This document shows, piece by piece, positions 2,789-20,000 of a DNA stretch of 20,000 nt (its first letter is position 1; the number at the start of each line of letters is the position of its first letter). Both the position numbers and the translations under genes were made by a program. The DNA comes from Chiloscyllium plagiosum (Eukaryota), in contig NC_057753.1 of assembly GCF_004010195.1 (NCBI RefSeq), positions 3,973,508-3,993,507 of the forward strand, read 5' to 3'. The notes below the pieces were generated by a model. That model was not told where the DNA came from. It did no database searches and saw nothing but the letters and a program-made list of their open reading frames with translations.

Positions 2789-3175
2789 GGAGGCTGAGGG
2801 GTGACCTTATAGAGGTTTACAAAATTATGAGGGGTATGGGTAGGGTAAATAGGCGAGGTCTTTTCCCTGGGATGGGGGAGTCCAGTACTAGAGGGTATAG
2901 GTTTAGGGTGAGAGGGGAAAGATATAAAAGAGACCTAAGGGGCAACATTTTCACACAGAGGGTGGTACGGGTATTGAATGAGCTGCCAGAGGAAGTGGTG
3001 GAGGCTGGTACAATTGCAACATTTAAGAGCCATTTGGATGGGTATATGAATAGGAAGGGTTTGGAGGGATATGGGCCGGGTGCTGGCAGGTGGGACTAGA
3101 TTGAGTTGGGATATCTGGTCACATGGACGGGTTGGACCGAAGGGTATGTTTCCGTGCTGTACATCTCTATGACTC
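2789..3175 (+). mobile_element. 5'-truncated CR1/HER1 LINE 3' end inserted in the Gypsy element
   Basis: RRLRGDLIEVYKIMRG...WD* followed by a 3'UTR and CTCTATGACTC tail; flanked by TGAATC at 2783-2788 and 3176-3181 (TSD). Confidence 0.9.
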
Positions 3176-3886
3176 TGAATCTTTCTCTGCTTGGGCCTGT
3201 CAGAGCGGTGACAGGGAATGAAGACTCTGGGAGCAGGCAGGACCTGGGCAAGTGGAAGTTTATTCCTACAGAAACCAGTTAAAGCAGAGAGAGGGCCAAA
3301 GGATCTTTTCTGAATCTGGCCTTGACGTACCAATGCAGTTCATCGTTTAATCTTTGGCTCAGATCAGAGGATAGATCAATGGCGCACTCAAACTCGTACA
3401 GTAAAAAGCAGTATTTTTATACATTTCTGTATTACAATGATCACATACAAGATGGTCGCAGCCATTCCCTCCCGATCCACTAAAACACCTCGTCAATGAT
3501 GAGCATCCCCGTGGTCCGCCTCAGGTTCCCATTACCTCACGGTGTTTACCATGTACTATAAATCCCCTCGTCCTTGGGATCTTTCTATGCATCCTATTCA
3601 CTCACATTCCAAAGTCACTGGTTGTACTCCCTCAGATCTGTTTCAGGCTGGCTTACCAATTAAAGACAGTTTGAATTCTTTTATTCACTGCATTCCTTTC
3701 AATTACTCCCTTCACGTTTCCCATTGTTCTAATCATATATGTAAAAATATGCAAGACAGTTAATTGTAACCAATTGCTATTTCTATTCTGAGGTTAGTGA
3801 AGGTTAGGTATACCGATTTCTACTGTTAGTCCTCCGCAGTTATTGGCCGTGAACAATCTAGTTTGTCCAAGGTGAATGAGAGAGTA

Positions 3887-4451: not shown

Positions 4452-4803
4452 TATAGAGACATACAAGATGATCAGAGGATTAGAGAGGGTAGACAGTGAC
4501 AGTCTTTTTCCTAGGATGATGACGTCAGCGTGTACGAGGGGGCATAACTACAAATTGAGGGGTGGTAGATTTAAGACAGATATCAGAGAGTGGTACTTTA
4601 CTCTGAGAGTGGTAAGGGTGTGGAATGCCCTTCCTGCTAATGTAGTCACCTCAGCCACAAAAGGGAGATTTAAACAATCCTTAGATAAGCACATGGATGA
4701 TGATGGGATAGTGGAGGGGACGAGCTGAGAATAGTTCACAGGTCGGTGCAACATCGAGGGCCGGAGGGCCTGTTCTGCGCTGTATTGTTCTATGTTCTAT
4801 GTC
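4452..4803 (+). mobile_element. CR1-type LINE 3' end
   Basis: IETYKMIRGLERVD...RVVRVWNALP...FKQSLDKHM, then GAGGGCCTGTTCTGCGCTGTAT and a (TGTTCTA)n tail. Confidence 0.9.
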
Positions 4804-4878: not shown

Positions 4879-5190
4879 CATAGAATCCCTACAGTGTGGA
4901 AACAGGCCCTTCGGCCCAACAAGTCCACACTGACCCGCTGAAGAGTATCCCACCCAAACCCATACCCCATTACTCCGCATTTTCCCCTGACTAATGCACC
5001 TAACCTACACATCCCTGTACACTACGGGCAATTTAGGACGGCCAATCCACCCTAACCTGCACATCCTTGGATTGTGGGAGGAAACCCACGGGAGAATGTG
5101 CAAACTCCTCATGGACAGTCACCCGAGGCTGGAATCGAACCAGAGTCCCTGGCGCTGTGAGGCAGCAGCGCTAATCACTGAGCCACCGTA
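4879..5190 (-). mobile_element. HE1-like SINE
   Basis: Reverse complement of the 1021-1304 family: CTGAGCCACC head, GGAATCGAACC B box, GGAAACAGGCCCTTCGGCCC tail. Confidence 0.9.
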
Positions 5191-6903: not shown

Positions 6904-7149
6904 AGGTCACTAATGAAGGTGGAGGAGAAGTAAGCTAAAAATGGGAAAGGAAAGATTGGACATCATGTGCGGTATTGAGGAGTTCACTCATTTCCTTCAG
7001 ACCAGTTGGGTTTCTCCAGCATTTTCTGTTTAATATGATTACTGTATGGCACTCTTTGATGCATGAAACAGTGACAAATCTTTGCAGAGGTAATTTCTTG
7101 AAGCAGTGTGGTGACTGTCCTGCATAAATACTCATACTGCTTATCCCAC

Positions 7150-7320
7150 TTATATCTCCACCCTGGAGGCTCCCTGCCTCCATTCCTGATGAAGGGCTTT
7201 TGCCCGAAACGTCGATTTTTTTCCTGCTCCTCGGATGCTGCCTGACCTGCTGTGTTTTTCCAGCACCACTCTCTAATGTAAACTCTGGTTTCCAGCATCT
7301 GCAGTCCTCATTTTTGCCTA
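7150..7320 (+). mobile_element. Penelope-like short repeat with hammerhead motif
   Basis: ATTCCTGATGAAGGGCTTTTGCCCGAAACGTCGATT...GATGCTGCCTGACCTGCTGTG...CCAGCATCTGCAGTC; the same unit recurs many times in the window. Confidence 0.8.
7182..7217 (+). ncRNA. Minimal type I hammerhead ribozyme motif
   Basis: CUGAUGA (7186-7192), stem II GGGC-UUUU-GCCC, GAAA (7206-7209), C-GUC cleavage triplet (7211-7213). Confidence 0.7.
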
Positions 7321-7459
7321 CTTATTCTGCTGTCTACCCATGGGATGGAGTGCACGTTGCTCAACTTTCAAAGCCAGCACACAAGCCACGTGAGCCACTC
7401 ACTTGCTGAAAAGTAAAGGAAATTTTGTTGCACTTCTCTCAAACTTCTTACAGATACCC

Positions 7460-7703
7460 TGGGCGGTACAGTGGCTGCCTCACTGTGCCAGGGACCTGGC
7501 TTCGATTCTAGTCTTGAGTGACTGTGTGTAGTTCATATGTTCTCCCAGTGTATGCGTGGGTTTCCTCCCACTGTCCAAAGACACGCAGGCTAGGGTGGAT
7601 TAGCCATGGGAAATGCAGGAGTGCTGGGACAAAGTGACATTCTCTTCAGGGAGTCAGTGCAGAGTTGATGGAGCAAATGGCCTGTTCCCATGCTGTAGGG
7701 ATT
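7460..7703 (+). mobile_element. HE1-like SINE (diverged)
   Basis: GGGCGGTACAGTGGCT head, GCTTCGATTC B-box-like, GCGTGGGTTTCCTCCCAC core, AATGGCCTGTTCCCATGCTGTAGGGATT tail. Confidence 0.8.
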
Positions 7704-7760
7704 TGCAGCAGTGCTGCTGACAGGCCACCTCCATTTCTGGCCCGCATACAGGAATACAGT

Positions 7761-7856
7761 ATTCCTGATGAAGGGCTTTTTCCCGAAACGTCAATTTTAC
7801 TGCTCCTCGGATGCTGCCTGAACTGCTGTGTCTTTCCAGCACCACTACTCCAGATC
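7761..7856 (+). mobile_element. 96-bp hammerhead-containing Penelope-like insertion with 12-bp TSD
   Basis: CTGATGA at 7765-7771, GAAACGTC at 7785-7792; flanked by CAGGAATACAGT at 7749-7760 and 7857-7868. Confidence 0.8.
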
Positions 7857-8494
7857 CAGGAATACAGTTAACACCGCAGCGATCGGTTCTGTCAGCTGAT
7901 TAAATCAAGACACCGACAGTTGGCGAAGCCGGGTAATGCGGATGCTTTGTCAAGGCTACTTTACCTGTCCAGGAACTGGGAGTTGTCCTTATCAGGCTTT
8001 TAATCTGGGGAATGAGTTTTTATCCTTCTCTCTTGTGAATAGGAATTGAGGAAGTTAGAAAGCCTCAAAGGGAACCGTTCCATGTTTTACTTCTCTTTCA
8101 AGACTTACTGTGGGCTCAAGGGTTAAACATTTCACGACCAAAGAGACTCGCTGCAGTATCAATTCCACGTCTGTCCTCTTACAGAATAGACAGAACATCT
8201 CAGGAGGGGGGAGAGGCTGACTGTATCCCAAAAAAGGAGTCCAGTGGAGCCACACATGTGGATTCCTCTGCAGCCTCAGACAGTGGTATCCTGTCCTTCC
8301 CAGACAGGACTGATAGCCTTGGCCACAACCCTGTTAAAAACTGCCTCCTGCTCCTATTATCTTGCTTCCCCTCCGTATTAGCATAGCTATGTAAATCCCC
8401 CATTGAGAACAGGCAGAACCCTTCTGCCTTACTCTCTTCCCATCAACACATGATCATGAAGAATGTGATAATTAGTCTCTCTAATCCATTCACA

Positions 8495-8775
8495 TGTTAT
8501 CACAGGATATCAACATGCACTGGGTTTTGTAAGGTCATGTAATGTAATGACAGTCAACCATGTGACTGATAGACCTTTTGTTTTAGCCCTATAAAGAATA
8601 CCGTCTTTGTGTGTAGATTTGTGAAGAGGTGTCACCACAAGTAGACGGATGACTCCTTCTGGTTAGATTGAGAATCTCTCACCAGCTGTCTGCTAATAAA
8701 CCATGTACTTTTAAGCAGAAACTTCTGTCGTCCGGATTTGTGGAGGAAAGACACCAACAGAATAAGTGCAACGAG
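8495..8775 (+). mobile_element. Putative Gypsy 5' LTR and degenerate PBS
   Basis: Starts TGTT (8495), TATAAA at 8590, AATAAA at 8695, ends AACA (~8759), then GTGCAACGAG (8766-8775), resembling the PBS at 6212-6221. Confidence 0.55.
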
Positions 8776-8777
8776 AG

Positions 8778-9400
8778 CATCCTGGCATAATCCGAAATAT
8801 CCAGGAGCTGCTTTTTGTGCTGAAGGTGGACTGCCAGATTGAGGAGAAAACTGGATTGTGCGAATACCGCACGTGACATCCGGAAGGTGCCAATGATGGC
8901 TTCACCCATGGGACTGGCTTCAGTCACCCTGGCTCTGGATTCAACTTGATTTTGCGGGACCAGTAGAGGATGTTCCTGGGTGATTGTGGATGCCCACACC
9001 AAGGTGGCCGTCATGAAGTCAGCAACAAAAACCACGATGGTACTGACAGGATGAAATATTTGCCAGGTTTGGGAACCCCGAACAGGTCGTAAGTGACAGT
9101 AGTCAATCGTTTGTGGAGCAAGCGTTTGAGGAGAAGCTGGAAAATCACGGAGCCAGATGCATGAGATCAGCTCCATATCACACTCTGTGTCAAGTGGCCA
9201 AGAGGAGAGATTTGTACAAACTATGAAGCAGACCTTTGAAGACCTCTCAAGGGACGGGTTCACTGGGATGATGACTCAAATAGTTCCTCACCTTGTATAG
9301 GAACACACCACACACGATGACCCAGTGCTTGCTTGTGACCTTAGTTCTCAGCTCACAGTTGAACATTATGTTTGACTTACTGCAGCCAGAAGAGACCAGA
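8778..9400 (+). mobile_element. Gypsy integrase remnant
   Basis: Frameshifted motifs HPGI, LHPWDWLQSPWLWIQLDFAGP, VIVDAHTK, IFARFGNPEQVVSD, RSAPYH..SGQEERFVQTMKQ, YRNTPH. Confidence 0.85.
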
Positions 9401-9429
9401 GTTGGGACAGCAAAATCAAGAAGGATAGA

Positions 9430-9703
9430 TCATCAGAATCATAGAATCCCTATGTTGTGGAAACAGGCCCTTTGGCCCAACAGGTTCACACCGACCCTCT
9501 GAGACCCATTCCCTGAACAGTATGTGCAGTTTAGCATGGCCAATTCACCTAGCCCTCGCAGCTTTGGATTGTGGGAGGAAACCGGAGCACCCGGAGAAAC
9601 AATGCAGATGGGTGAAAATGTGCAAGCACCACACAGTCAGCCGAGGCTGGAATCGAACCCAGGTCCTTAGCACTGTGAGGCAGCAATGCTAACCACTGAG
9701 CCA
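9430..9703 (-). mobile_element. HE1-like SINE
   Basis: GGAAACAGGCCCTTTGGCCC tail, GGAAACCGGAGCACCCGGAG core, GGAATCGAACCC B box, GCTAACCACTGAGCCA head (reverse orientation). Confidence 0.9.
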
Positions 9704-9830
9704 GGAGAAAGTGACAACTGCAGATGCCAGAGACCAGAGGTGAGAGTGTGGTGCTGGATAAGCACGGCCAGTCAGGCAACATCCGCAGAGCAGGAGAATT
9801 GACGTTTCAAGCATAAGCTCTTCATCAGGC
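9704..9830 (-). mobile_element. Penelope-like short repeat with hammerhead motif
   Basis: Minus strand CTGATGA-A-GAGC-TTAT-GCTT-GAAACGTC (9828-9801), followed by the family body. Confidence 0.75.
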
Positions 9831-9927
9831 GTGTGTGTATTCGCATACTCGCAGACACCTCCTTCTACTGCCCCCTTGATCACAACCTCGCCTCCACTCA
9901 CCAAACTACAGATAGATATAAGTAAAC

Positions 9928-10071
9928 GAGTATGGTGTTGGAAAAGCACAGTCGGTCAAGCAGCATCCGAGGAGCTGGAGAGTCGACGTTTTGGGCATAA
10001 ACTGCTTCTCGGATGCTGCCTGAGCGGCTGTGTTCTTCCAGCGCCATACTCTTCGACTCTGATCTCCAGCA
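9928..10071. mobile_element. Inverted pair of Penelope-like repeats
   Basis: GAGTATGGTGTTGGAAAAGCACAG...GCAGCATCCGAG is mirrored by CTCGGATGCTGCC...TTCCAGCGCCATACTC. Confidence 0.75.
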
Positions 10072-10500
10072 CCCGGGTTCAATTCCAGCCTCGGGGGACC
10101 GCACATGCTCCCCGTGGCCGGGTGGGTTTCCACTGGGTGCTCTGTCTTCCTCCCACATTCCAAAGATTAGATTAGATTACTTACAGTGCGAAAACAGGCC
10201 CTTCAGCCCAACAAGTCCACACCGACCTGCCAAAGCGCAACCCACCCAGACCCCTCCCCCTACATTTACCCCTTCACCTAACGCTACGGGCGATTTAGCA
10301 CGGCCAATTCACCTAACCTGCACGTGTGCAGGTCAGGGTGAATTGGCCGTGCTAAATTGCCCGCAGCGTCCAGGGCTGTGTAGGTTAGGTGCATTAATCA
10401 GGGGTGATTGGGCAGGGGAATGGGTCTGGCCGGGTGACTGCTGAGGGTCAGTATGGACTGGTTGGGCTGAAGGGCCTGTTTCCCCAGTGTAGGGATTCTG
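10072..10500. mobile_element. HE1-like SINE cluster: a partial + copy, then inverted 3' halves joined at ~10325
   Basis: GGTTCAATTCC B box at ~10076. TTAGCACGGCCAATTCACC..CTGCAC-GT-GTGCAG..GGTGAATTGGCCGTGCTAA forms a palindromic centre, with tails pointing outward at ~10170 and ~10495. Confidence 0.85.
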
Positions 10501-10859
10501 GGTACGTTCTGCAGTGCTCACTTTCTCCCGAGATAGATACAAGGGCGAGCCATTTCCAAGGAAAGTGAGTTGAGGATTGTCAGATGAGCCATGACTTTAT
10601 GGTTCAAGGTGAGGGCGGACACATGGAGTTCCCACAGAGTTGTTTTTGTTTGGTCACAATGAGGTCTAGCTGATTGACGGCGACGTCGACCAATGGAAAG
10701 GGCGCGCTTCGGCCCGGTGGGATGACAACTAACGGGGATAGAGGGGGGGCGGGGCTGACGGTCTGACGTCACGGGCGGGGACGACGTGACGAACCCAGGG
10801 GCCGGGATGACGCAATGACGTCGGGGGCGGACGGTGGAGCGGAAGGTCGAGGAGGAGAC

Positions 10860-10870
10860 ATGGCGGCCCC
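10860..10870 (+). other. 3' end of candidate first exon of the ZNF gene (ATG GCG GCC CC | GTGAGT)
   Basis: Strong Kozak-like ACATGG followed by a consensus donor GTGAGT at 10871; candidate acceptor TTTTACAG at 12728. Confidence 0.55.
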
Positions 10871-10986
10871 GTGAGTGAGGGAGCGGGAGGTGTCATTGCC
10901 GCACCGTGGGTAGGCTGCCGGAGCCGTATCGGCAACGTCCGGTTCTGCGCTTGCAGCGAAAGGAAAGAGGCGACGGGCCCGCTTAC

Positions 10987-10998
10987 CGTCGTCGCCAT
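10987..10998 (-). other. 3' end of candidate first exon of an antisense gene (ATG GCG ACG ACG | GTAAGC)
   Basis: Minus strand AAAATGGCGACGACG followed by donor GTAAGC at 10986; CCAAT, GC box and NRF1 site lie upstream on that strand. Confidence 0.5.
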
Positions 10999-11097
10999 TT
11001 TTATTGGGAGGCAACTCAGGAATGAGCCCCCGCCCCCCACTGAGGTGGCCGCTGGTGTCACAGGGCGCATGCGCGCCCTTCTCTGTGATGTCAGAGA

Positions 11098-11507
11098 CAA
11101 TGGCCTCGTGGGAAGGCAAGTTGCCCAGTGGGGAGGCAATGGCCTCATGGGAAGACAAGTTGCCCAGTGGGGAGGCCATGGCCTCATGGGAAGGCAAGTT
11201 GCCCAGTGGGGAGGCCATGGCCTCATGGGAAGGCAGGTTGCCCAGTGGGGAGGCCATGGCCTCATGGGAAGGCAGGTTGCCCAGTGGGGAGGCAGGTTGC
11301 CCAGTGGGGAGGCCATGGCCTCATGGGAAGGCAAGTTGCCCAATGGGGAGGCAATGGCCTCATGGGAAGGCAGGTTGCCCAGTGGGGAGGCAATGGCCTC
11401 ATGGGAAGGCAGGTTACCCAGTGGGGAGGCAATGGCCTCATGGGAAGGCAAGTTGCCCAGTGGGGAGGCAATGGCCTCATGGGAAGGCAAGTTGCCCAGT
11501 GGCAATG
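11098..11507. repeat. 39-bp GC-rich minisatellite (~10 copies plus one ~20-bp partial unit)
   Basis: Unit GGCAATGGCCTCATGGGAAGGCAAGTTGCCCAGTGGGGA; short unit at ~11291-11310. Confidence 0.95.
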
Positions 11508-11616
11508 GGCTGCCCTTGTGGGGGAAGAGCTGGCTCAATGGGAGGGGGCGGCGCCGTGGGGAGGGGATGTGTCGGTCAGCCCCACGCGGAGGGGATAGTC
11601 CACCCTGTGTGGACTT

Positions 11617-11941
11617 GGTGCCTTAGTGGTATTATTGGCGGACTATTGATCCAGAATAACGGTCTGGGGTCCTGGGTTCGAATCTCGCCACGGCAGATGG
11701 TGGAATTTGCATTCAGTGAAAAACAAATTAAGGGTCTAACGATGAGCATGAATCCACTGTCGATTGTGGGAAAGACCCGCCTCATTCACTAATGCCCTTT
11801 TGGGAGGGAAACTGCCACCCTTACCTGGTCTGGCCTCTGTGTGACTCCAAGCCCTCAGCAATGTGATTAACTCTTAACTGCCCCCTGGGCGATAAATGCT
11901 GGCCAAGCCAGCAATACCTTAGTCCCATGAATGAGAAAAAA
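11617..11941 (+). mobile_element. tRNA-head SINE (second family), near full length
   Basis: TTAGTGG A-box-like, GGGTTCGAATCTC B box (~11674), body homologous to 2110-2322, ends CCCATGAATGAGAAAAAA. Confidence 0.85.
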
Positions 11942-12828
11942 GGGGGAGGATTTATACACAGCAAAATCAAAGCAGGTGAGATGTTTGTCTGTTTGGAATT
12001 TCTGCCCTACACTGACAGCGATGGGTTTTGGAAACTCCGTGAAACGTTGGTAAAGCGTTGAATCAACAAATCAGCTGCTTTTCTTCGAGCCCCCGCTGAA
12101 ACAGTGCTGGAGGCACTGACAGAAGTCAGTGTGGGAGTGAGTGGAGAATTAAAAATGCCAAGTGACTCCCGATAGCAGTGTAAAGCAGATTCGGTTGCGA
12201 GCAGTGAATACAGCGCATAGATTACAATTAGCCCAAAGAAATCTCCGATCGGTTTCAAAGTTTCAAACTTTAACCACAGCCTGAAAAAGGGCTCTTTCTT
12301 TGATGAGTAAGTGATACAAAGTAAAATGAAACAATTCCCAGGGTATGAATTTCTGCCCGTGTTGTAGGATTTAAAAAGTATCACTGTGACCACAATCAAC
12401 TAAATCTGTACCTACCTATTGAACCCCATTTCTGGTATGATCTCCAGTGTGTGTGTTTGGAGGTGCTGGGTTTCTATGGCCCAACTGCTCTTGTTCGAGA
12501 TTTTTGGGGCTTAGGAGATTCCATTGTACGTCTAGTCGAGTTGCAGTTGGATAAAGCTATCTTCTTTCTCACTATCTCTTCCCTTCCTACAGAAAGGTTC
12601 ACATCTCGTCTAGTCCCAGACTAGATGTCGGGTTCCCACCTTTGAGTGACATTAGTGAATCGGTCTGATGTGTTTGTGGCTTAGCTGCGTTCATGGTCAC
12701 GGTTTACTGTGTTACCTTCATTTTACAGGGCATTTGTGAAGGGTCGTTTCTGAGGAACAAGGCTCAAACTGGACATTGTGCCAAGAGCGCCCTGAGTAGT
12801 TTAATTCATCGGGACCTGGATTCTGAAC

Positions 12829-13782
12829 ATGGAAGGAAGAGGAAGCATTACCAGTGAGGAGAACCCTTACACCAGTTCTGGGGCTGGACAAGGATTCAGC
12901 CAATCATCTAGTCTGTCAAGAGATGGAGTTTTTCATAGTGAAGAGAAACTGTGGCATTGTGGGGACTGTGGCAAGGGATTTAAGTATCCCTCTCAACTGG
13001 AAGCTCATCGACGCAGTCACACAAGGGAGAGGCCATTCATCTGCTCCGAGTGTGGGAAGGGATTCATTCAGTTGTCTCACCTGCTGACGCACCAGAGGGT
13101 TCACACTGATAACAGGCCTTTTAAATGCTCCGACTGTGGGAAGTGCTTCAAGAGTTCCAAGCAACTGATGTCCCATCAACGCGTTCACACTGACAAGAAA
13201 CCATACAGGTGCTCTCACTGTGGGACTGGCTTCAGGCAATCATCTGATCTCACTGTACACCAGCGGGTTCACACTGGGGAGAGGCCGTTCATCTGCTCCA
13301 AGTGTGGGAAGGGATTCATTAATTCGTCCCACCTGCTGACCCACCAGCGAGTCCACACCGAGGAGAGACCATTCACCTGCAGGGAGTGCGGGAAAGGATT
13401 CACTCAGCTATCCAATCTGCTCAGGCACCAACGGGTTCACAGCGATGAGAGACCCTTTACCTGCCCGCATTGTGGCAAGTGCTATAAAAGTTCCGGAGAG
13501 TTGGTGCGCCATCAACGTGTCCACACGGATGAGAGACCGTTTCGGTGCTCCCACTGTGGGACTGGGTTCAAGCGATCGTCTGAGCTGACTGTACACCAAC
13601 GAGTCCACACTGGGGAAAGGCCTTTCTCCTGCTCCGAGTGCGGGAAGGAATTCACTCAGTCATCCCACCTACTCCAACATCAACGAATTCACACCGGGGA
13701 GAGACCGTTCAGCTGCTCCAAGTGTGGGAAGGGATTCATTAACTCATCCAACCTACAGAGTCACCAGCGAGTTCACAAGTAA
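12829..13782 (+). CDS. C2H2 zinc finger protein with 10 tandem Krueppel-type fingers and no KRAB/SCAN/BTB (317 aa)
   Basis: Intact ORF with ten CxxC-x12-HxxxH units and TGERP-type linkers, plus a degenerate N-terminal finger ([24 protein letters not shown]). Kozak AACATGG; upstream acceptor at 12728. Confidence 0.95.
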
Positions 13783-13909
13783 CTGCAGCATTGGCGTTTT
13801 GCTGTTTATCCCAGCTTGGACTGAACTGTCTTCACTGGAATCTGGTATTAATGACTTTCAACCTGGCTGTAGGTGTTAATATTCTGGACAAAATGCAAAT
13901 TCGCCTTCC

Positions 13910-13915
13910 ATTAAA
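13910..13915 (+). promoter_or_regulatory. Candidate polyadenylation signal ATTAAA of the ZNF gene
   Basis: First canonical-type hexamer after the stop, followed by T-rich sequence. Confidence 0.4.
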
Positions 13916-14254
13916 TTATGTGCTAAGGCTTTTTAATATCTTGAGCACAAGTTAGTTCCGTTTGAAAGTGTTTCCTTTCCACCCTGTCCAAAAGGTGTGA
14001 GGAGCTAGGAAAGGTTCCTTGCCAGAGATTGAGACAACCCAATCAGCTGTCCCTGCTACTTCCCTTTCCCACAGACCAAACTGTCTCCGAAATTCCTCTT
14101 GCCTGAGCCCTGAATTCCCATCTGTCTCTAATTTCTCTCCTATCTCCAGTCATGCCGTGGCAGAGTTCATTGTGACCAGCCTTTTGCTCCTGTGATCCTG
14201 GTCCCAATTAATTGCTGCCCATTTAAATTCCCCAGGCTGGCTGAAACAGATCTC

Positions 14255-14385
14255 ATTCCTGGTGAAGGGCCTTTGTCCGAAACATGTATTCTCCTGCTCC
14301 TCAGATGCTGCCTGACCTGCTGTGCGTTTCCAGCACCACACTCTCGACGCTGATTCCCCCAGCGTCTGCAGTCCTCACTTTCTCC
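14255..14385 (+). mobile_element. Penelope-like short repeat with degenerate hammerhead
   Basis: ATTCCTGGTGAAGGGCCTTTGTCCGAAACATG (core A6->G, triplet lost), followed by the family body. Confidence 0.75.
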
Positions 14386-14409
14386 CTCGCTAAAATAGAA
14401 GCTGACTTT

Positions 14410-14612
14410 GCAAAAGCAAAATACTGCAAATTGGTGGAAATCTAAAATAAAAACAAAGTGTTGGAGAAACTCAGCAAATTTGGTAGCCCCTGGTCGTGAG
14501 AGATCACTGTTAGCAGTGTGACGCTTGCTTGGAACTGAAGAATCATCAGATTTGAAAGGTGAATTCTGGCCTCTCTTCACAGGGGCTGCCAAACCTGCCA
14601 GCTTTCTCCATT
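14410..14612. mobile_element. Older Penelope-like inverted repeat with hammerhead-like remnant
   Basis: TGGAGAAACTCAGCA... is mirrored by ...CCAGCTTTCTCCA; CTGAAGA-ATC-ATCA-GAT-TT-GAAA at 14535-14557. Confidence 0.5.
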
Positions 14613-14654
14613 CCAACTCCCCTTTCCTGATTGCAGTGGGTCAGATCCGGGATG

Positions 14655-15058
14655 GGGTTTAATAGGAAGGAACTTTCCCAGTTCGTCAAAGGATCAATAA
14701 CTGGGGCTTAGATTTCTGGTAAAGGGCAGGAGATTTAAGGGAAGAATTTTGTACCCAGTGGGATGCGTGTAGAGAGGAACCTCGATTATCCGAAGGACAC
14801 GGGCGGTGAGTATTTTGTGCGGTTAATTGAATGCCCGATCACATAAGTCGGCCAAGCATCGGAAGTTTGTGATCTTGTTCGGCGAATGCCAAATTTGGTT
14901 AATCGAATGCTGGATCATCGAGATTCCTCCGTACCTGGAACTTGCTACCTGAAAGGATGGTAGGGGCGGAAATCATTTCAACATTTAGTTGGTATTTGGA
15001 TGAGCGGTTGAAGTGCCGTAGCACAACTTTCCAAGTAACTGGAAAGTGGGGTGAGAGG
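14655..15058 (+). mobile_element. Old CR1 LINE 3' fragment, split by a MITE
   Basis: GGGCAGGAGATTTAAG...TA|CCTGGAACTTGCTACCTGAAAGGATGGTAG (WNLLPERMV) ...TATTTGGATGAG...GGAAAGTGGG. Confidence 0.7.
14772..14931. mobile_element. Tigger-like MITE
   Basis: TA at 14770-14771 and 14932-14933; TIRs GAGAGGAACCTCGATTATCC vs revcomp CGGAGGAATCTCGATGATCC. Confidence 0.8.
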
Positions 15059-15094
15059 AATCACGTGGTGTAAAACTCTTATCTGAAAAAAATC

Positions 15095-15280
15095 TCACAC
15101 AAACTCCAGGTTACGGTCCGACAGGTGGATTTGGAAGCAGCTGCTTTCGGAATGCTGCTCCTTCAGCAGGTGGCTGAACCTGATGAACACACGACCGCCT
15201 GCTGAAGGAGCAACGCTCCAAAAGCTTGTGCTTCCAAATCCACCTGTCGGACCGTAACCAGCTGGTGTGCGCGATTTGTC
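15095..15280. mobile_element. Palindromic Penelope-like element (second subfamily) with hammerhead-like cores on both arms
   Basis: Perfect 31-bp inverted repeat 15109-15139 / 15229-15259; inner arms CTGCTGA-A-GGAGC..GCTCC-(G/A)AAAGC on each strand. Confidence 0.75.
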
Positions 15281-15486
15281 CAGCCCAGTCTGACACCGGC
15301 ACCTCCACATGGTTGTTAACATCTGCCTCTCCAGGCCAGGTGGAGAAATTCCTCTGAGGCACTGTGGGATATTGTTTGTGGGATAATGTTTTCTCAATGT
15401 AAGTTAATTGCAAAACTCCACAAACTGCAATCAAACACGTGAACAGTGCAAGGATTCAAAGTTGTTGCAAATGTACACATAAACAG

Positions 15487-15531
15487 ACACACACACACAC
15501 ATATATACATACATACATACATACATATATA
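15487..15531. repeat. Compound (CA)n/(TA)n/(TACA)n microsatellite
   Basis: Seen directly. Confidence 0.9.
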
Positions 15532-15917
15532 ATTAAGGTCATTGGTATATTGAGCCAATTCAACACATCTCACAAATTCAGAATTTCTCCAGGACTGATC
15601 CTTGAGGTACGAATGAGTGATGGAAGCAGTCAGGGGGAACAATTCCCGGGGAATTTCGGAAGCAGGAATGGTAAATCGACTGAACAGAGGAGAGAGAACA
15701 TTCTTATCCCTCAGACTCGACAAGCTCTCAGTTGCTAACAGCAAGGAGCTTTGACTTTGTCCAGATTTGATGTGGCTCAGTTGAATTCTCACCAGAGCAG
15801 TAATGGGGATGCTGCGCCAAAAAATGTCTGGAAATCTTGAATATTTGTGCTTAATTTTGAGGATCTTGGTGCCATATTCATTCAAGACTCAAATGCAGAC
15901 CCACGAAGGATTGAGCT

Positions 15918-17100
15918 CCCCAAACCGGGAGGGTTCCCGTCCCCAATCCGGGAGGGATCACCCAGCCCGCCGTCCCCAAACCGGGAGGGTTCACCCAGCC
16001 CGCCGTCCCTAAACCCCCCAGCGCACCGTCCCCAAACCGGGAGGGTTCACCCAACGCACCGTCCCCAAACCCCCCCAGCGCACCGGCCCCAAACCGGGAG
16101 GGTTCACCCAGCTCGCCGTCCCCATATCCCCCAGCGAACCGTCCCCAAACCGGGAGGGTTCACCCAGCCCGCCGTCCCCAAACCCCCCAGCGAACCGTCC
16201 CCAAACCTGTAGGGTTCAACCAGCCCGCCGTCCCCAAACCGGGAGGGTTCACCCAGCCCGCCGTCCCCAAACTCCCCAGCGCACCGTCCCCAAACCGGGA
16301 GGGTTCACCCAGCTCGCCGTCCCCATATCCCCCAGCGCACCGTCCCCAAACCGGGAGGGGTCACCCAGGCCGCTGGCCCCAAACCGGGAGGGCTCACCCA
16401 GCGCACCGTCCCCAAACCGGGAGGGGTCACCCAGCGCACCGTCCCCAAACCGGGAGGGTTCACCCAGCGCACCGTCACCAAACCGGGAGGGCTCACCCAG
16501 CGCACCGTCCCCAAACCGGGAGGGCTCACCCAGCGCACCGTCCCCAACCCGGGAGGGTTCACCCAGCCCGCCGGCCCCAAACCGGGAGGGCTCACCCATC
16601 CCGCCTGCCCCAAACCGAGAGGGCTCACCCAGCCCGCCGGCCCCACACCGAGAGGGTTCACCCAGCCCGCCGGCCCCACACCGAGAGGGTTCACCAGCCC
16701 GCCGGCCCCACACCGAGAGGGCTCACCCAGCCCGCCGGCCCCACACCGGGAGGGCTCACCCAGCCCGCCGGCCCCACACCGGGAGGGTTCACCCAGCCCG
16801 CCGTCCCCAAACCGGGAGGGCTCACCCAGCCCGCCGTCCCCAAACCGGGAGGGCTCACCCAGCCCGCCGTCCCCAAACCACCCAGCGCACCGTCCCCAAA
16901 CCGGGAGGGCTCACCCAGCTCGCCGTCCCCCAACCGGGAGGGCTCACCCAGCCCGCCGTCCCCAAACCGGGAGGGCTCACCCAGCCCGCCGTCCCCAAAC
17001 CGGGAGGGCTCACCCAGGCCGCTGGCCCCGCACCGGGAGGGCTCACCCAGCCCGCCGTCCCCAAACCGGGAGGGCTCACCCAGCCCGCCGTCCCCGCACC
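15918..17100. repeat. 33-bp C-rich minisatellite with interspersed 21-23-bp short units
   Basis: Unit CCCAGCCCGCCGTCCCCAAACCGGGAGGGCTCA with variants (GCGCAC, GGCCCC, GAGAGG), spanning ~1.2 kb. Confidence 0.95.
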
Positions 17101-18053
17101 AGAAACGAAAACCATAAACTGAAACTGCATTGGATTCCAATTGTACAGCTTTTTCTGAGCTTCCCCACGCTAAGTTGTTCGTAATGGTGATGTAAATGAG
17201 CGTAATCTTTGGCAGGGCTATTTTTGACTCTTTGCCAGTATTTATTTGAAGAGAAACACCCGATGTTTTGAACAGTAATTGCTCTTGGTCCTGAAACAGA
17301 CAACGCAGGGAGAGCTTACCGGGTCAGGCAACATCCGTGGAAAGGACAAACGTCCTGCCCTTCCTCAAACCTAGTCCGTTCTGTGCAAGGGTCAACAAGT
17401 CTCTGCACAGATGACATCGTCCCAGCAGACAGCTGACTTGCTGATTTAACAGTTCGAAACACTGAAAATAAATTCAGAAATGTTGATGGTTATGGATTCA
17501 TTTTGTGCTGTCAAAGCTGCACAAAGCAGTTTCCTTGAGATCCACATGATTCAATTTGTTTTCAGCATTGAAAATTTATACTGGTGTCACTACTTTATTC
17601 GACAATGTCGGAAGCACCCGTTTGTTTCAAATTAAAAACTCTCCAGTTTTCATTGGTCTCGGTTTCTATTCTACAAGTTTTCAGTCCCGTGAACTTCTCT
17701 TAGCAGAATCACTCCTTGTCAGAAAAAACAACTCAGCCAAGTGAGAACGATCAGAGCAAAGCATGAACCAACACTGCCAGCTGAAAGAAATGTAGGGTCA
17801 GATTGCAGTTTCCATGAAGGAGAAATGATGAGTCAGTCTTGAAAAGAGGGAGAGGTGGACATGCAAGAGGATGGGAAAGGGTTAACCGAGTGTGGGATCA
17901 AAAGTAAGAGCCCAGGAGTTTGCTCTCTGGTCCAGCCTGGGCTCAGCTGGACTTCCATCCAACCTTGCATCCATTCTTTCGTTACTGAAAAGCTTTCCAG
18001 GCTCAAGTGACGCAGATTCCTTGTTCGATTCAGTTAGGAAAGGCAAAGGAGTC

Positions 18054-18152
18054 AGGTAAAAACAAGGACTGCAGATGCTGGAAACCAGAAACTTGATTAG
18101 AGTGGTGCCGGAAAAGCACAGCAGGTCAGGCAGCATCCGAGGAGCAGGAGAA
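18054..18152 (-). mobile_element. Penelope-like short repeat lacking the ribozyme core
   Basis: GACTGCAGATGCTGGAAACCAGA...GCAGCATCCGAGGAGCAGGAGAA; homology stops just 3' of the predicted GUC cleavage site. Confidence 0.8.
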
Positions 18153-18463
18153 GGTAACGGAGTAAGAGCATCTGACAGAGATTTGGGACAAAAGCAAAAA
18201 ACTGCCAGAGAAACTGAGCAGCATCTGTGGAGACAGTAACACAATTGATTTGTTTTGAGGCCACTGCCTCTTTCTCAGGAGATTGGGAGGTCTCCGTCCC
18301 AGAGGGGTACACGTTCCAGTCAGCCGGACAATTCTTGGTGATTCCTTCACCATCTCCCAAGTTCCGAGGGGTAATTTAGGTCAACGCCTTCTTTCATCCC
18401 AACAGTCGGAACGTTTAGACACCACTGTCACAGCCAGTTTGGATTTCTTCACTTGGCTGATCA

Positions 18464-18655
18464 GGAGAACGTGAGCATTGCAGACGCTGGAGGAGATCAG
18501 AGTGGTGCTGGAAAAGCACAGCAGGTCAGGCAGCATCCGAGGAGCAGGAAAATGATGAAGGGCGGGCTTCTGCCCGAGATGTCGGCTCTCCTGCTCCCCA
18601 GATGCTGCCTGACCAGCTGTGCTTTTCCAGCGCCACCCCTCTCTCGGCTCTGATC
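18464..18655. mobile_element. Inverted pair of Penelope-like repeats
   Basis: The minus-oriented arm ends at ~18553. The plus arm starts TGATGAAGGGCGGGCTTCTGCCCGAGATGTC (inactive core). CTGATCAG occurs at 18457-18464 and 18650-18657. Confidence 0.75.
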
Positions 18656-18929
18656 AGTGTTTATCTCCACATTATATCCCTGCCTTTTCTGTAACGTCTT
18701 GACTACTTGCTAGAAGTGCAATGTTCGAGCTGGTGAGCATTAGGGTCAGCTTTGCTTTTTGTCTCAATTACAGGGGTCACCTCCACTGCCTCAGTTTCCA
18801 ACTCCGCCTGCATTGTGGGTTCTGTCTCGTACTGACTGAACTCAATAACTTCCAAATATCCATATCGGTTTAAGAAGCTTCTATTGATCTGCCTGTGAAA
18901 CAGTTCAATATTTTCAGTACTTTGTCAGT

Positions 18930-19620
18930 TTAATCTGATATGATTCGCATCCAACAGCATTTATGGCAGATACAATCCACAGTAACCCTTAAACTCTCTT
19001 TAAACTCCCACATCTGACAAGAAGTACATCTCACTGCAAAGGCCATTTTTGCTCCTTCACAATCTACAGACCCAGAAAATAACACCGTCTTATTCCTCTA
19101 CAAACACTGCCCCAGGTTAAGTTAATAGCTGTGGCTTATATATTAAGTTTAATCAAGAGACTTGTCTCCAAAAACATATAACCAAGAAAGAACCCACTGT
19201 ACTCACTAATACAGCCTTTCTCTTGGACAGACTTAAAACAACAATTAACTGATCTGATTCTGTGTTGTGAACTTCGACCAAACCGGTTCCTCCCAGATTA
19301 GTTGTGAATTTTGTTAATTTTCCCAGACGCACTCCGATGTCCAGCGACACATGAATTCAAATACAGCAAAGGCGGTAACTGTGTCGGTTCTCTCTCCCTC
19401 TCCCCCCTGCACTGTCCTCACCATGTGCTTCCCTTGTCTGCTCTTCTCCCTTTTAAAACTGCTGTTGTTTTGACTTTTTTTATCCCCAAAGTTCCAAAAC
19501 AATGCTACAGCATCTAAAACAGTAATTACTGCTCCTGGAATTCGAGGAAATTACCTCCAGCTCCTAAAATACCTCAAAAAAAAGGAGCTGATCTTACAAC
19601 TAGAAATTTTTCCCGTCCTC
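18930..19620 (-). mobile_element. CR1 LINE 5'UTR and ORF1 start
   Basis: ATG at 19046 gives MAFAVRCTSCQMWEFKESLRVTVDCICHKCCWMRIISD*, the CxxCxMWE...CxKC zinc-binding N-terminus typical of CR1 ORF1; the 5'UTR extent is inferred. Confidence 0.65.
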
Positions 19621-19624
19621 CAAC

Positions 19625-19869
19625 GGGCTGAGAAGTGGCAGATGGAGTTTAATTCAGAAAAACACGAGGTGCTGCATTTTGGGAAAGCAAATCTCAGCAG
19701 GACTTATACATTTAATGGTAAGGTCCTAGGGAGTGTTGCTGAACAAAGAGACCTCGGAGTGCAGGTTCATAGCTCCTTGAAAGTGGAGTTGCAGGTAGAT
19801 AGGATACTGAAGGCGGCATTTGGTCTGCTTTCCTTTATTGGTCAGAGTATTGAGTACACGAGTTGGGAG
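19625..19869 (+). mobile_element. CR1 LINE ORF2 fragment (post-RT)
   Basis: AEKWQMEFNSEKHEVLHFGKAN...EQRDLGVQVHSSLKV...AFGLLSFIGQSIEYTSWE, cut off by a Penelope-like insertion. Confidence 0.9.
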
Positions 19870-20000
19870 GGAAAAACAATGACTGCAGATGCTGGAAACC
19901 AGATCCTGGATTAGTGGTGCTGGAAGAGCACAGCAGTTCAGGCAGCATCCGAGGAACTTCGAAATCGACGTTTCGGGCAAAAGCCCTTCATCAGGAATAA
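19870..20000 (-). mobile_element. Penelope-like short repeat with intact hammerhead motif
   Basis: Minus strand ATTC-CTGATGA-A-GGGC-TTTT-GCCC-GAAAC-GTC-GATT (core 19994-19967), identical to the 7186-7213 core. Confidence 0.8.

Follow-up and report, generated by a model that had tools for sequence, protein, structure and literature searches.

Minimal hammerhead ribozyme motifs in short repeats, probably 5'-truncated ends of Penelope-like retrotransposons, in the genome of the shark Chiloscyllium plagiosum

Short repeats carrying a minimal hammerhead ribozyme (min-HHR) motif lie dispersed over a 20,000-nucleotide stretch of the genome of Chiloscyllium plagiosum (NCBI RefSeq assembly GCF_004010195.1, contig NC_057753.1, positions 3,973,508 to 3,993,507 of the forward strand), which is referred to here as the window and numbered from its first nucleotide. 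In this study, we characterized the principal repeat, designated family A, and conclude with a probability of about 0.88 that its stubs are short, 5'-truncated terminal repeats (a pseudo-long terminal repeat, pLTR, with an optional tail) of endonuclease-bearing Penelope-like retrotransposons (Penelope-like elements, PLEs). From the motif together with the anatomy of the insertions, we infer a PLE parent. The stubs are read as 5'-truncated because one copy extends 38 nt further upstream, because this upstream part is itself repeated, and because the tail and the inverted arms are as in PLE insertions. The initial annotation of the window had proposed a minimal type I hammerhead of the PLE kind within a distinct non-autonomous retroelement. 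The ribozyme assignment holds, as the motif matches the published consensus and family A has the insertion anatomy of PLEs. The distinct element, however, is not supported, since the longer upstream copy, the tail and the inverted arms fit truncated PLE ends better.

The ribozyme motif and the repeat that carries it

Both strands of the window were scanned with a descriptor taken from the published min-HHR consensus, and 40 dinucleotide shuffles served as the null. The scan of the window returned four exact cores, at 7186 (+), 7765 (+), 9828 (-) and 19994 (-), and each of the 40 shuffles returned zero; the near-intact cores annotated at these positions are real. All four have the type I order CUGANGA, an unpaired A, stem II, GAAA, CG and UC. 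They are copies of one repeat and thus count as one motif rather than as four independent ones. Only 7186 and 19994 have a complete motif, in which a stem II of 4 bp is combined with two or more pairs in helix I. The boxes are intact in the other two as well. At 7765, stem II (GGGC/UCCC) contains a C-U mismatch and the closing pair of helix I is gone; at 9828, stem II is GAGC/GCUU and the 5' strand of helix I is gone.

The ACGU palindrome is found in all four exact cores and in four of the five family-A motif copies, a stable helix III being absent, and the strands of helix I, AUUC/GAUU, include a U-U mismatch. Both features, the helix III reduced to ACGU and the weak helix I, had been recognized before and are confirmed. 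The closing pair 1.1-2.1 of helix I is kept at 7186 and 19994 (two pairs, the mismatch, one pair) and lost in three of the five family-A copies. The unpaired base following A9 is A7193, and the G10.1-C11.1 pair is G-C in four of the five copies and G-U in one. The earlier count of about eight cores in 20 kb stands for the four intact sets of boxes, just two of which belong to complete motifs; the other four cores are degenerate or dead. At 14259 (family A) A6, the palindrome and the cleavage nucleotide are altered and stem II is GGGC/GUCC. The core at 18553 (family A) is scrambled, and at 14535 both boxes are present (CUGAAGA...GAAA), yet there is only one stem pair. The covariance-model search proposed for the motif did not recover it: no hammerhead family is among the 34 Rfam matches listed for the window at E<=10.

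Stem II was described earlier as varying in a compatible manner, with the suggestion of covariation. Across the five family-A motif copies, we found stem II altered on both strands once (9828), altered on a single strand to a wobble pair twice, and broken once, and the covariation score of these copies was equalled by 105 of 500 shuffles. The apparent covariation comes from the dead copy at 14259, which supplies GGGC/GUCC, and from the core at 15199, which supplies GGAGC/GCUCC, has both A6 and G12 changed and belongs to a second repeat, family B; it arose because families and dead copies were pooled, and the C-U mismatch at 7765 had been omitted. Two of the four stem II pairings cited earlier stem from dead cores, and covariation within family A does not rise above the shuffles. 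The occurrence of GGGC/GCCC in family A and GGAGC/GCUCC in family B around the same boxes fits a common fold, as a single comparison in which the core of family B is broken in both arms. As for conservation of the core relative to the rest of the repeat, differing cells amount to 1/55 in the core, 5/40 in stem II and 18/230 in the body, numbers that are too small to separate the three.

By blastn, family A is a repeat of 95-180 nt with 10 arms at eight loci in the window (Table 1), and no open reading frame is left at any of them. With end positions counted on the scale of the reference copy at 14253, the 3' ends fall into two classes, 91-102 (three arms) and 123-133 (seven arms, among them the reference copy itself and, at 10002, a right arm whose tail continues beyond a later insertion), so that tailed arms carry an additional 30-40 nt. 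Two of the eight loci are head-to-head pairs, and in both of these exactly one arm is tailed. The arms of the pair at 18464..18654 meet directly after helix I's 3' strand, which is also the joint seen in the strand switches of the public runs described below. Flanking direct repeats of 12-16 bp were scored against 5000 random position pairs drawn outside tandem repeats, and at five of the seven testable loci, one of them ambiguous, the score was reached by at most 72 of these pairs. The stub at 18050..18152 begins directly past the 3' strand of helix I, about 5 nt beyond the predicted cut site. This stub could copy a cleaved RNA; as a single case it is no evidence of this, and reads do not pile up at that site.

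Abundance, decay and predicted folding

Public sequencing runs of the same organism were aligned to positions 7090-7350 of the window at 80% likeness; the variants given below come from the 40 rows listed out of 109, and the joints from the 15 listed out of 50. Family A is very high-copy, as had been claimed: 72,417 contigs in run X5 and 5,564 in run X1 match the stub at 7144-7322, these being counts of contigs and not copy numbers; raw-read run X22 contributed no reads. The depth profile has flat flanks, a rise at 7144, a jump at 7180-7188 and an end near 7323. The 38 nt upstream of the motif (7144-7181) are thus also repeated in the public runs, with a depth at 7162-7170 that is 1.5-4.5% of that of the motif in DNA runs and 9% in RNA, and there are two or more upstream extensions, namely 7144-7181 and a loose-end consensus at 7181. 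Neither reads nor contigs showed a pile-up of starts or ends, including at the predicted cut site, a polyA library being ill-suited to show ribozyme ends. Among the 15 joints, 11 are strand switches from 7180-7186 to 7218-7234, and nine of these 11 end at 7218-7223, just beyond the 3' strand of helix I.

Five variants within the motif are among the listed rows, two of them non-CpG changes and three CpG transitions. The non-CpG changes lie at free positions, N7 (10-30%) and loop II (19-35%). The CpG transitions affect C11.1 (16.9% in X5, 5.2% in X1), G12 (15.1% and 6.3%) and the G of the palindrome (13.7% and 4.8%). G12 is known as the general base of the hammerhead (PMC6155905). Because the frequency of change at this catalytic residue is close to that at its CpG partner, the decay of the copies appears to be neutral; on this reading of the sequences, the source elements kept the core, while inserted copies would decay without selection, mostly at CpG. 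The lower frequency of G12 change relative to C11.1 in RNA (6.4% vs 14.7%) was considered as a sign of selection and rejected, as it comes from a single read direction only.

The predicted folds favour inactive structures, with the qualification that the energies leave the tertiary contacts of the core out of account. For the monomer, an inactive rod, in which box 1 and the cleavage strand are paired with each other, is predicted at -11.4 kcal/mol, compared with -5.3 kcal/mol for the hammerhead, and for two identical copies the double hammerhead is predicted at -9.5 kcal/mol vs -22.8 kcal/mol for two rods. These predictions agree with the weak cleavage described in the literature. Monomers of min-HHRs were reported not to cleave and dimers to cleave at a low level (PMC4209133), cleavage was reported only in the presence of the PLE protein (PMC11167929), and one of nine Xenopus dimers was active, the other eight remaining uncleaved (bioRxiv 10.64898/2026.07.22.740005). 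It is most likely, by analogy with these systems and from the modelled folds, that the motif would process the RNA of tandem source elements as a protein-assisted dimer and would be inert in the solo stubs.

Parent element and competing explanations

The motif of family A is of the kind described for the pLTRs of metazoan PLEs by Cervera and de la Peña in 2014 (PMC4209133), with the same CUGANGAH-G..C-GAAA-palindrome-NUH type I layout and a short helix I. Examples from Nematostella(2) and Acropora in Fig. S3 of that paper share the 4-bp stem II and the CG palindrome. As described there, most motifs of family A are solo in truncated copies, and close pairs on opposite strands occur. That paper reports that the genomes of fish, coelacanth and Xenopus each contain thousands of min-HHRs, and no cartilaginous fish is among the 56 representatives of its Fig. 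S3. Helix I of family A differs in its U-U mismatch, and its 4-bp stem II is at the short end. Literature searches brought up no paper on PLE hammerheads of sharks and none on family A; the supplements of Li et al. 2026 (10.64898/2026.07.22.740005) may name the family.

The insertions resemble the unit formed by endonuclease-bearing PLEs (PMC3846280, 10.1101/2021.04.23.441226, PMC11167929), sharing with it the head-to-head arms, a tail of 30-40 nt on one arm, terminal duplications and strong 5' truncation. The duplications are 12-16 bp here and 8-10 bp in the rotifer PLE examples, and the loci are devoid of an open reading frame, unlike a full endonuclease-bearing PLE, whose single reading frame, next to the pLTR, encodes a telomerase-like reverse transcriptase and a GIY-YIG endonuclease. 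Poseidon and Neptune are the candidate parent clades. In the anole PLE, reverse transcription starting at two sites gives rise to the tail, which is called unique to PLEs in the account given there (PMC11167929). The same account describes a ribozyme that is protein-assisted and dispensable for insertion in vitro, and likewise saw no RNA-seq reads with an end at this site of cleavage. Common to family A and the non-LTR retrozymes (PMC7229834; 10.64898/2026.07.22.740005) are the lack of coding capacity, the hammerhead and the derivation from PLEs. However, retrozymes are described as arranged in tandem, with a consensus of 51-972 bp, and as giving rise to circular RNAs, whereas the stubs of family A are dispersed, either solo or inverted, and flanked by duplications of their own.

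From these likenesses we infer the course of reverse transcription, the cleavage in the source element and the inertness of the copies. The pLTR of the source element would carry a minimal type I hammerhead whose helix III is the ACGU palindrome, so that two copies in a multimeric or tandem transcript would have to pair as a double hammerhead in order to cut after GUC. A PLE protein would probably assist this cleavage, as in other PLEs. The reverse transcriptase of the element would start at either of two sites separated by 30-40 nt near the RNA's 3' end, would copy about 95-135 nt and would very often halt at the front edge of the ribozyme. Occasional fold-back would produce a head-to-head pair, and repair would leave a duplication of 12-16 bp. 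The inserted copies would be solo and dead on arrival, decaying neutrally and mostly at CpG.

Several observations weigh against the derivation from truncated PLE ends. Pfam was searched with 72 of the 92 window frames of at least 70 aa, the remaining frames being those in tandem repeats or the CpG-rich stretch, those overlapping a zinc-finger reading frame and the frame 989-1201; no reverse transcriptase or GIY-YIG match was found among the 72, and only the zinc-finger frame matched. The translated stub had no match among longer proteins. Two of the seven testable loci lack a convincing duplication (none at 9703, weak at 14254), and the 8-bp repeat at 18457/18650, whose score was reached by 72 of 5000 random pairs, is palindromic and may be part of the element. 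In the public runs, strand-switch joints make up a minor fraction of the depth, changes of the core at lower levels are possible beyond the 40 of 109 variant rows listed, and summed contig depth was rejected as a measure of copy number, as its ratios differ 13- to 30-fold between runs. Other searches were empty: a match of the translated stub to a 994-aa tandem-repeat translation is spurious, its score summing weak matches; scans with the family-A pattern gave 0 hits in viral contigs, 0 in metagenome contigs and 0 in prokaryote genomes; and scans for promoters, terminators and tRNAs returned nothing, by methods ill-suited to this material.

An alternative that we consider quite improbable is that the stub of 95-135 nt is a self-contained non-autonomous element, either dependent on PLEs in the manner of a short interspersed element (SINE) or a monomeric retrozyme, with master copies of its own, which would be excised by its hammerhead from host transcripts and copied by PLE proteins. 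Such an element would account for the start at 7180-7188 that most copies share and for the low depth upstream of it, and pLTR-derived non-LTR retrozymes have been described in one chondrichthyan genome (bioRxiv 10.64898/2026.07.22.740005). However, the boundary that stays fixed lies at the ribozyme's front, whereas a self-cleaved RNA should begin at 7213/7214, where starts and ends do not pile up in reads or contigs. Retrozymes are by definition tandem units, and no tandem family-A units are present in the window, while the two or more different upstream extensions are expected of truncated longer elements. It is highly unlikely that individual copies, such as those at 7186 or 19994, are active and cleave host transcripts, as they might if 7186 paired with 7765. 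These same-strand neighbours are 579 nt apart, and their double hammerhead is predicted at -1.4 kcal/mol vs -18.7 kcal/mol for two monomers; in the native 7186-7765 span, helix III has a pair probability of about 0.0003 and the inactive rod one of about 0.88. Activity would be in keeping with the two complete motifs and with the presence of the family in polyA single-cell RNA, in which 3,318 of 12.96 million reads (run X21) match it, on both strands. However, a likeness of 99% or more to the 7144 copy is reached by just 38 of these reads, and 98% of the reads continue into other sequence, and the published monomers, low-level dimers and eight uncleaved Xenopus dimers cited above (PMC4209133; 10.64898/2026.07.22.740005) also speak against it.

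That the motif is a chance look-alike of a hammerhead in a repeat of another class, multiplied by amplification, is extremely unlikely. The intact cores do all come from one family and are hence not independent, the listed Rfam matches include no hammerhead, and the covariation within the window is not significant. A look-alike would nevertheless have to possess the full published consensus, including features outside the search descriptor (the unpaired base after A9, the G10.1-C11.1 pair and the palindrome), as well as the independent PLE hallmarks of the stubs, and to have arisen alongside a second, unrelated family with the same layout and a different stem II.

Within the derivation from PLE ends, the hammerhead fold, whether it cuts or not, may set where reverse transcription of the PLE ends, a proposal that we regard as rather unlikely. 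Reverse transcriptase would stop on reaching helix I's 5' strand; the end of the cDNA could then snap back onto the part of the cDNA that was copied from the 3' strand, giving the mirror arm. Such a stop would explain why the start of the stubs is 7180-7186 and not the cut site, and it would account for the nine of 11 listed strand switches that end at 7218-7223. Self-priming at palindromic junctions has been proposed for PLEs before (PMC3846280). If the proposal is true, the ribozyme would be a programmed stop and self-priming device, filling the genome with stubs of about 100 nt.

Other repeats and genes of the window, and significance of family A

Family B is represented by a head-to-head pair at 15068..15315 with a hammerhead-like motif of its own, and blastn found no match between it and family A. 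A6 is changed in both arms, G12 in one and U16.1 in the other. The identical A6 change in both copies of box 1 is expected if the mirror arm was copied during insertion, and the spacer contains a further hammerhead-like box near 15180. The old repeat or repeats at 14400..14612 possibly have a hammerhead ancestry. Fragments of greater age, similar in part to the body of family A, occur at 6940-7030, 14400-14612, 17290-17400 and 18170-18260, with a blastn match of 17305-17350 to this body at E 0.006-0.01; they are probably more decayed families of PLE ends.

Table 1. Coordinates of hammerhead-bearing and related repeats in the window
Feature	Position	Strand	Details
Complete min-HHR	7182..7217	+	Consensus descriptor scan and fold
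Helix I, 5' strand	7182-7185	+	Part of min-HHR 7182..7217
Box	7186-7192	+	Part of min-HHR 7182..7217
Unpaired A	7193	+	Part of min-HHR 7182..7217
Stem II	7194-7205	+	Part of min-HHR 7182..7217
GAAA	7206-7209	+	Part of min-HHR 7182..7217
CG palindrome	7210-7211	+	Part of min-HHR 7182..7217
U16.1	7212	+	Part of min-HHR 7182..7217
C17	7213	+	Part of min-HHR 7182..7217
Helix I, 3' strand	7214-7217	+	Part of min-HHR 7182..7217
Predicted cut	7213/7214	+	Of min-HHR 7182..7217
Family A stub, longest copy	7144..7318	+	38-nt upstream repeat, min-HHR, body, tail
Decayed 13-bp flanking repeat of 7144..7318	7129-7141 / 7319-7331		11/13 match; 72/5000 random pairs
Family A stub, untailed	7761..7856	+	Boxes intact, stem II mismatch; blastn and end analysis
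Exact 12-bp target-site duplication of 7761..7856	7749-7760 / 7857-7868		5/5000 random pairs
Family A stub, tailed	9703..9830	-	GAGC/GCUU stem II; flanking repeat looked for, none
Family A head-to-head pair	9925..10529	both	13-bp flanking repeat, 12/13 match; 10/5000 random pairs
Left arm of 9925..10529	9925-10000	-	Untailed, box 1 missing
Right arm of 9925..10529	10002-10071	+	Split by later SINE-like insertion; tail resumes at about 10508-10529
Family A stub, tailed	14254..14385	+	Dead core; weak flanking repeat, 368/5000 random pairs
Family A stub without ribozyme, tailed	18050..18152	-	16-bp flanking repeat, 13/16 match; 35/5000 random pairs
Family A head-to-head pair	18464..18654	both	Left arm (-) tailed; right arm (+) from scrambled core 18553, untailed
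Family A stub, tailed	19868..19998	-	Complete min-HHR (C3 at 19994); upstream flank beyond window
Family B head-to-head pair	15068..15315	both	Own hammerhead-like motif, GGAGC/GCUCC stem II; predicted dead
Old, strongly decayed repeat(s)	14400..14612		Boxes at 14535, no stem II; by blastn neither family A nor B

The window also contains an intact frame of 325 aa at 12805-13782 (+) with 10 C2H2 zinc fingers (PF00096, E 4.9e-68), and the same strand carries, about 470 nt further downstream, the dead family-A copy at 14254. The stretch 10600-11100 resembles a CpG island (GC 63%, CpG observed/expected 1.02 vs 0.47 for the window) and is likely the promoter of the zinc-finger gene; it is followed by a 39-bp minisatellite at about 11090-11500. 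A long, GC-rich 33-bp minisatellite with 56-bp variant units occupies 15915-17100, and its open frames are an artefact of the period. An abundant SINE-like family, which we take to resemble the shark HE1 SINE, is present at 1022-1300, 4880-5190, 7460-7700, 9430-9703 and 10072-10500; the last of these copies is younger than the pair at 9925-10529 because it is inserted within the right arm of that pair. Decayed fragments resembling long interspersed elements, presumably of the CR1 type, lie at 1310-2110, 2790-3180, 4460-4800 and 19000-19868, with no Pfam match in the scanned frames. A further decayed stretch at about 8400-9400, also without a Pfam match in its frames, is in our view a probable remnant of a long terminal repeat (LTR) retroelement.

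The analysis gave no indication of a host function for family A, which is an ordinary further example of the min-HHR-bearing PLE ends known since 2014. With it, the observation made then is extended to a lineage that the alignment published at that time did not include (PMC4209133), and to a family of very high abundance. With its tens of thousands of dated copies that share a sharp 5' boundary, the family offers material with which to ask why PLEs have retained a ribozyme although insertion in vitro can do without it.

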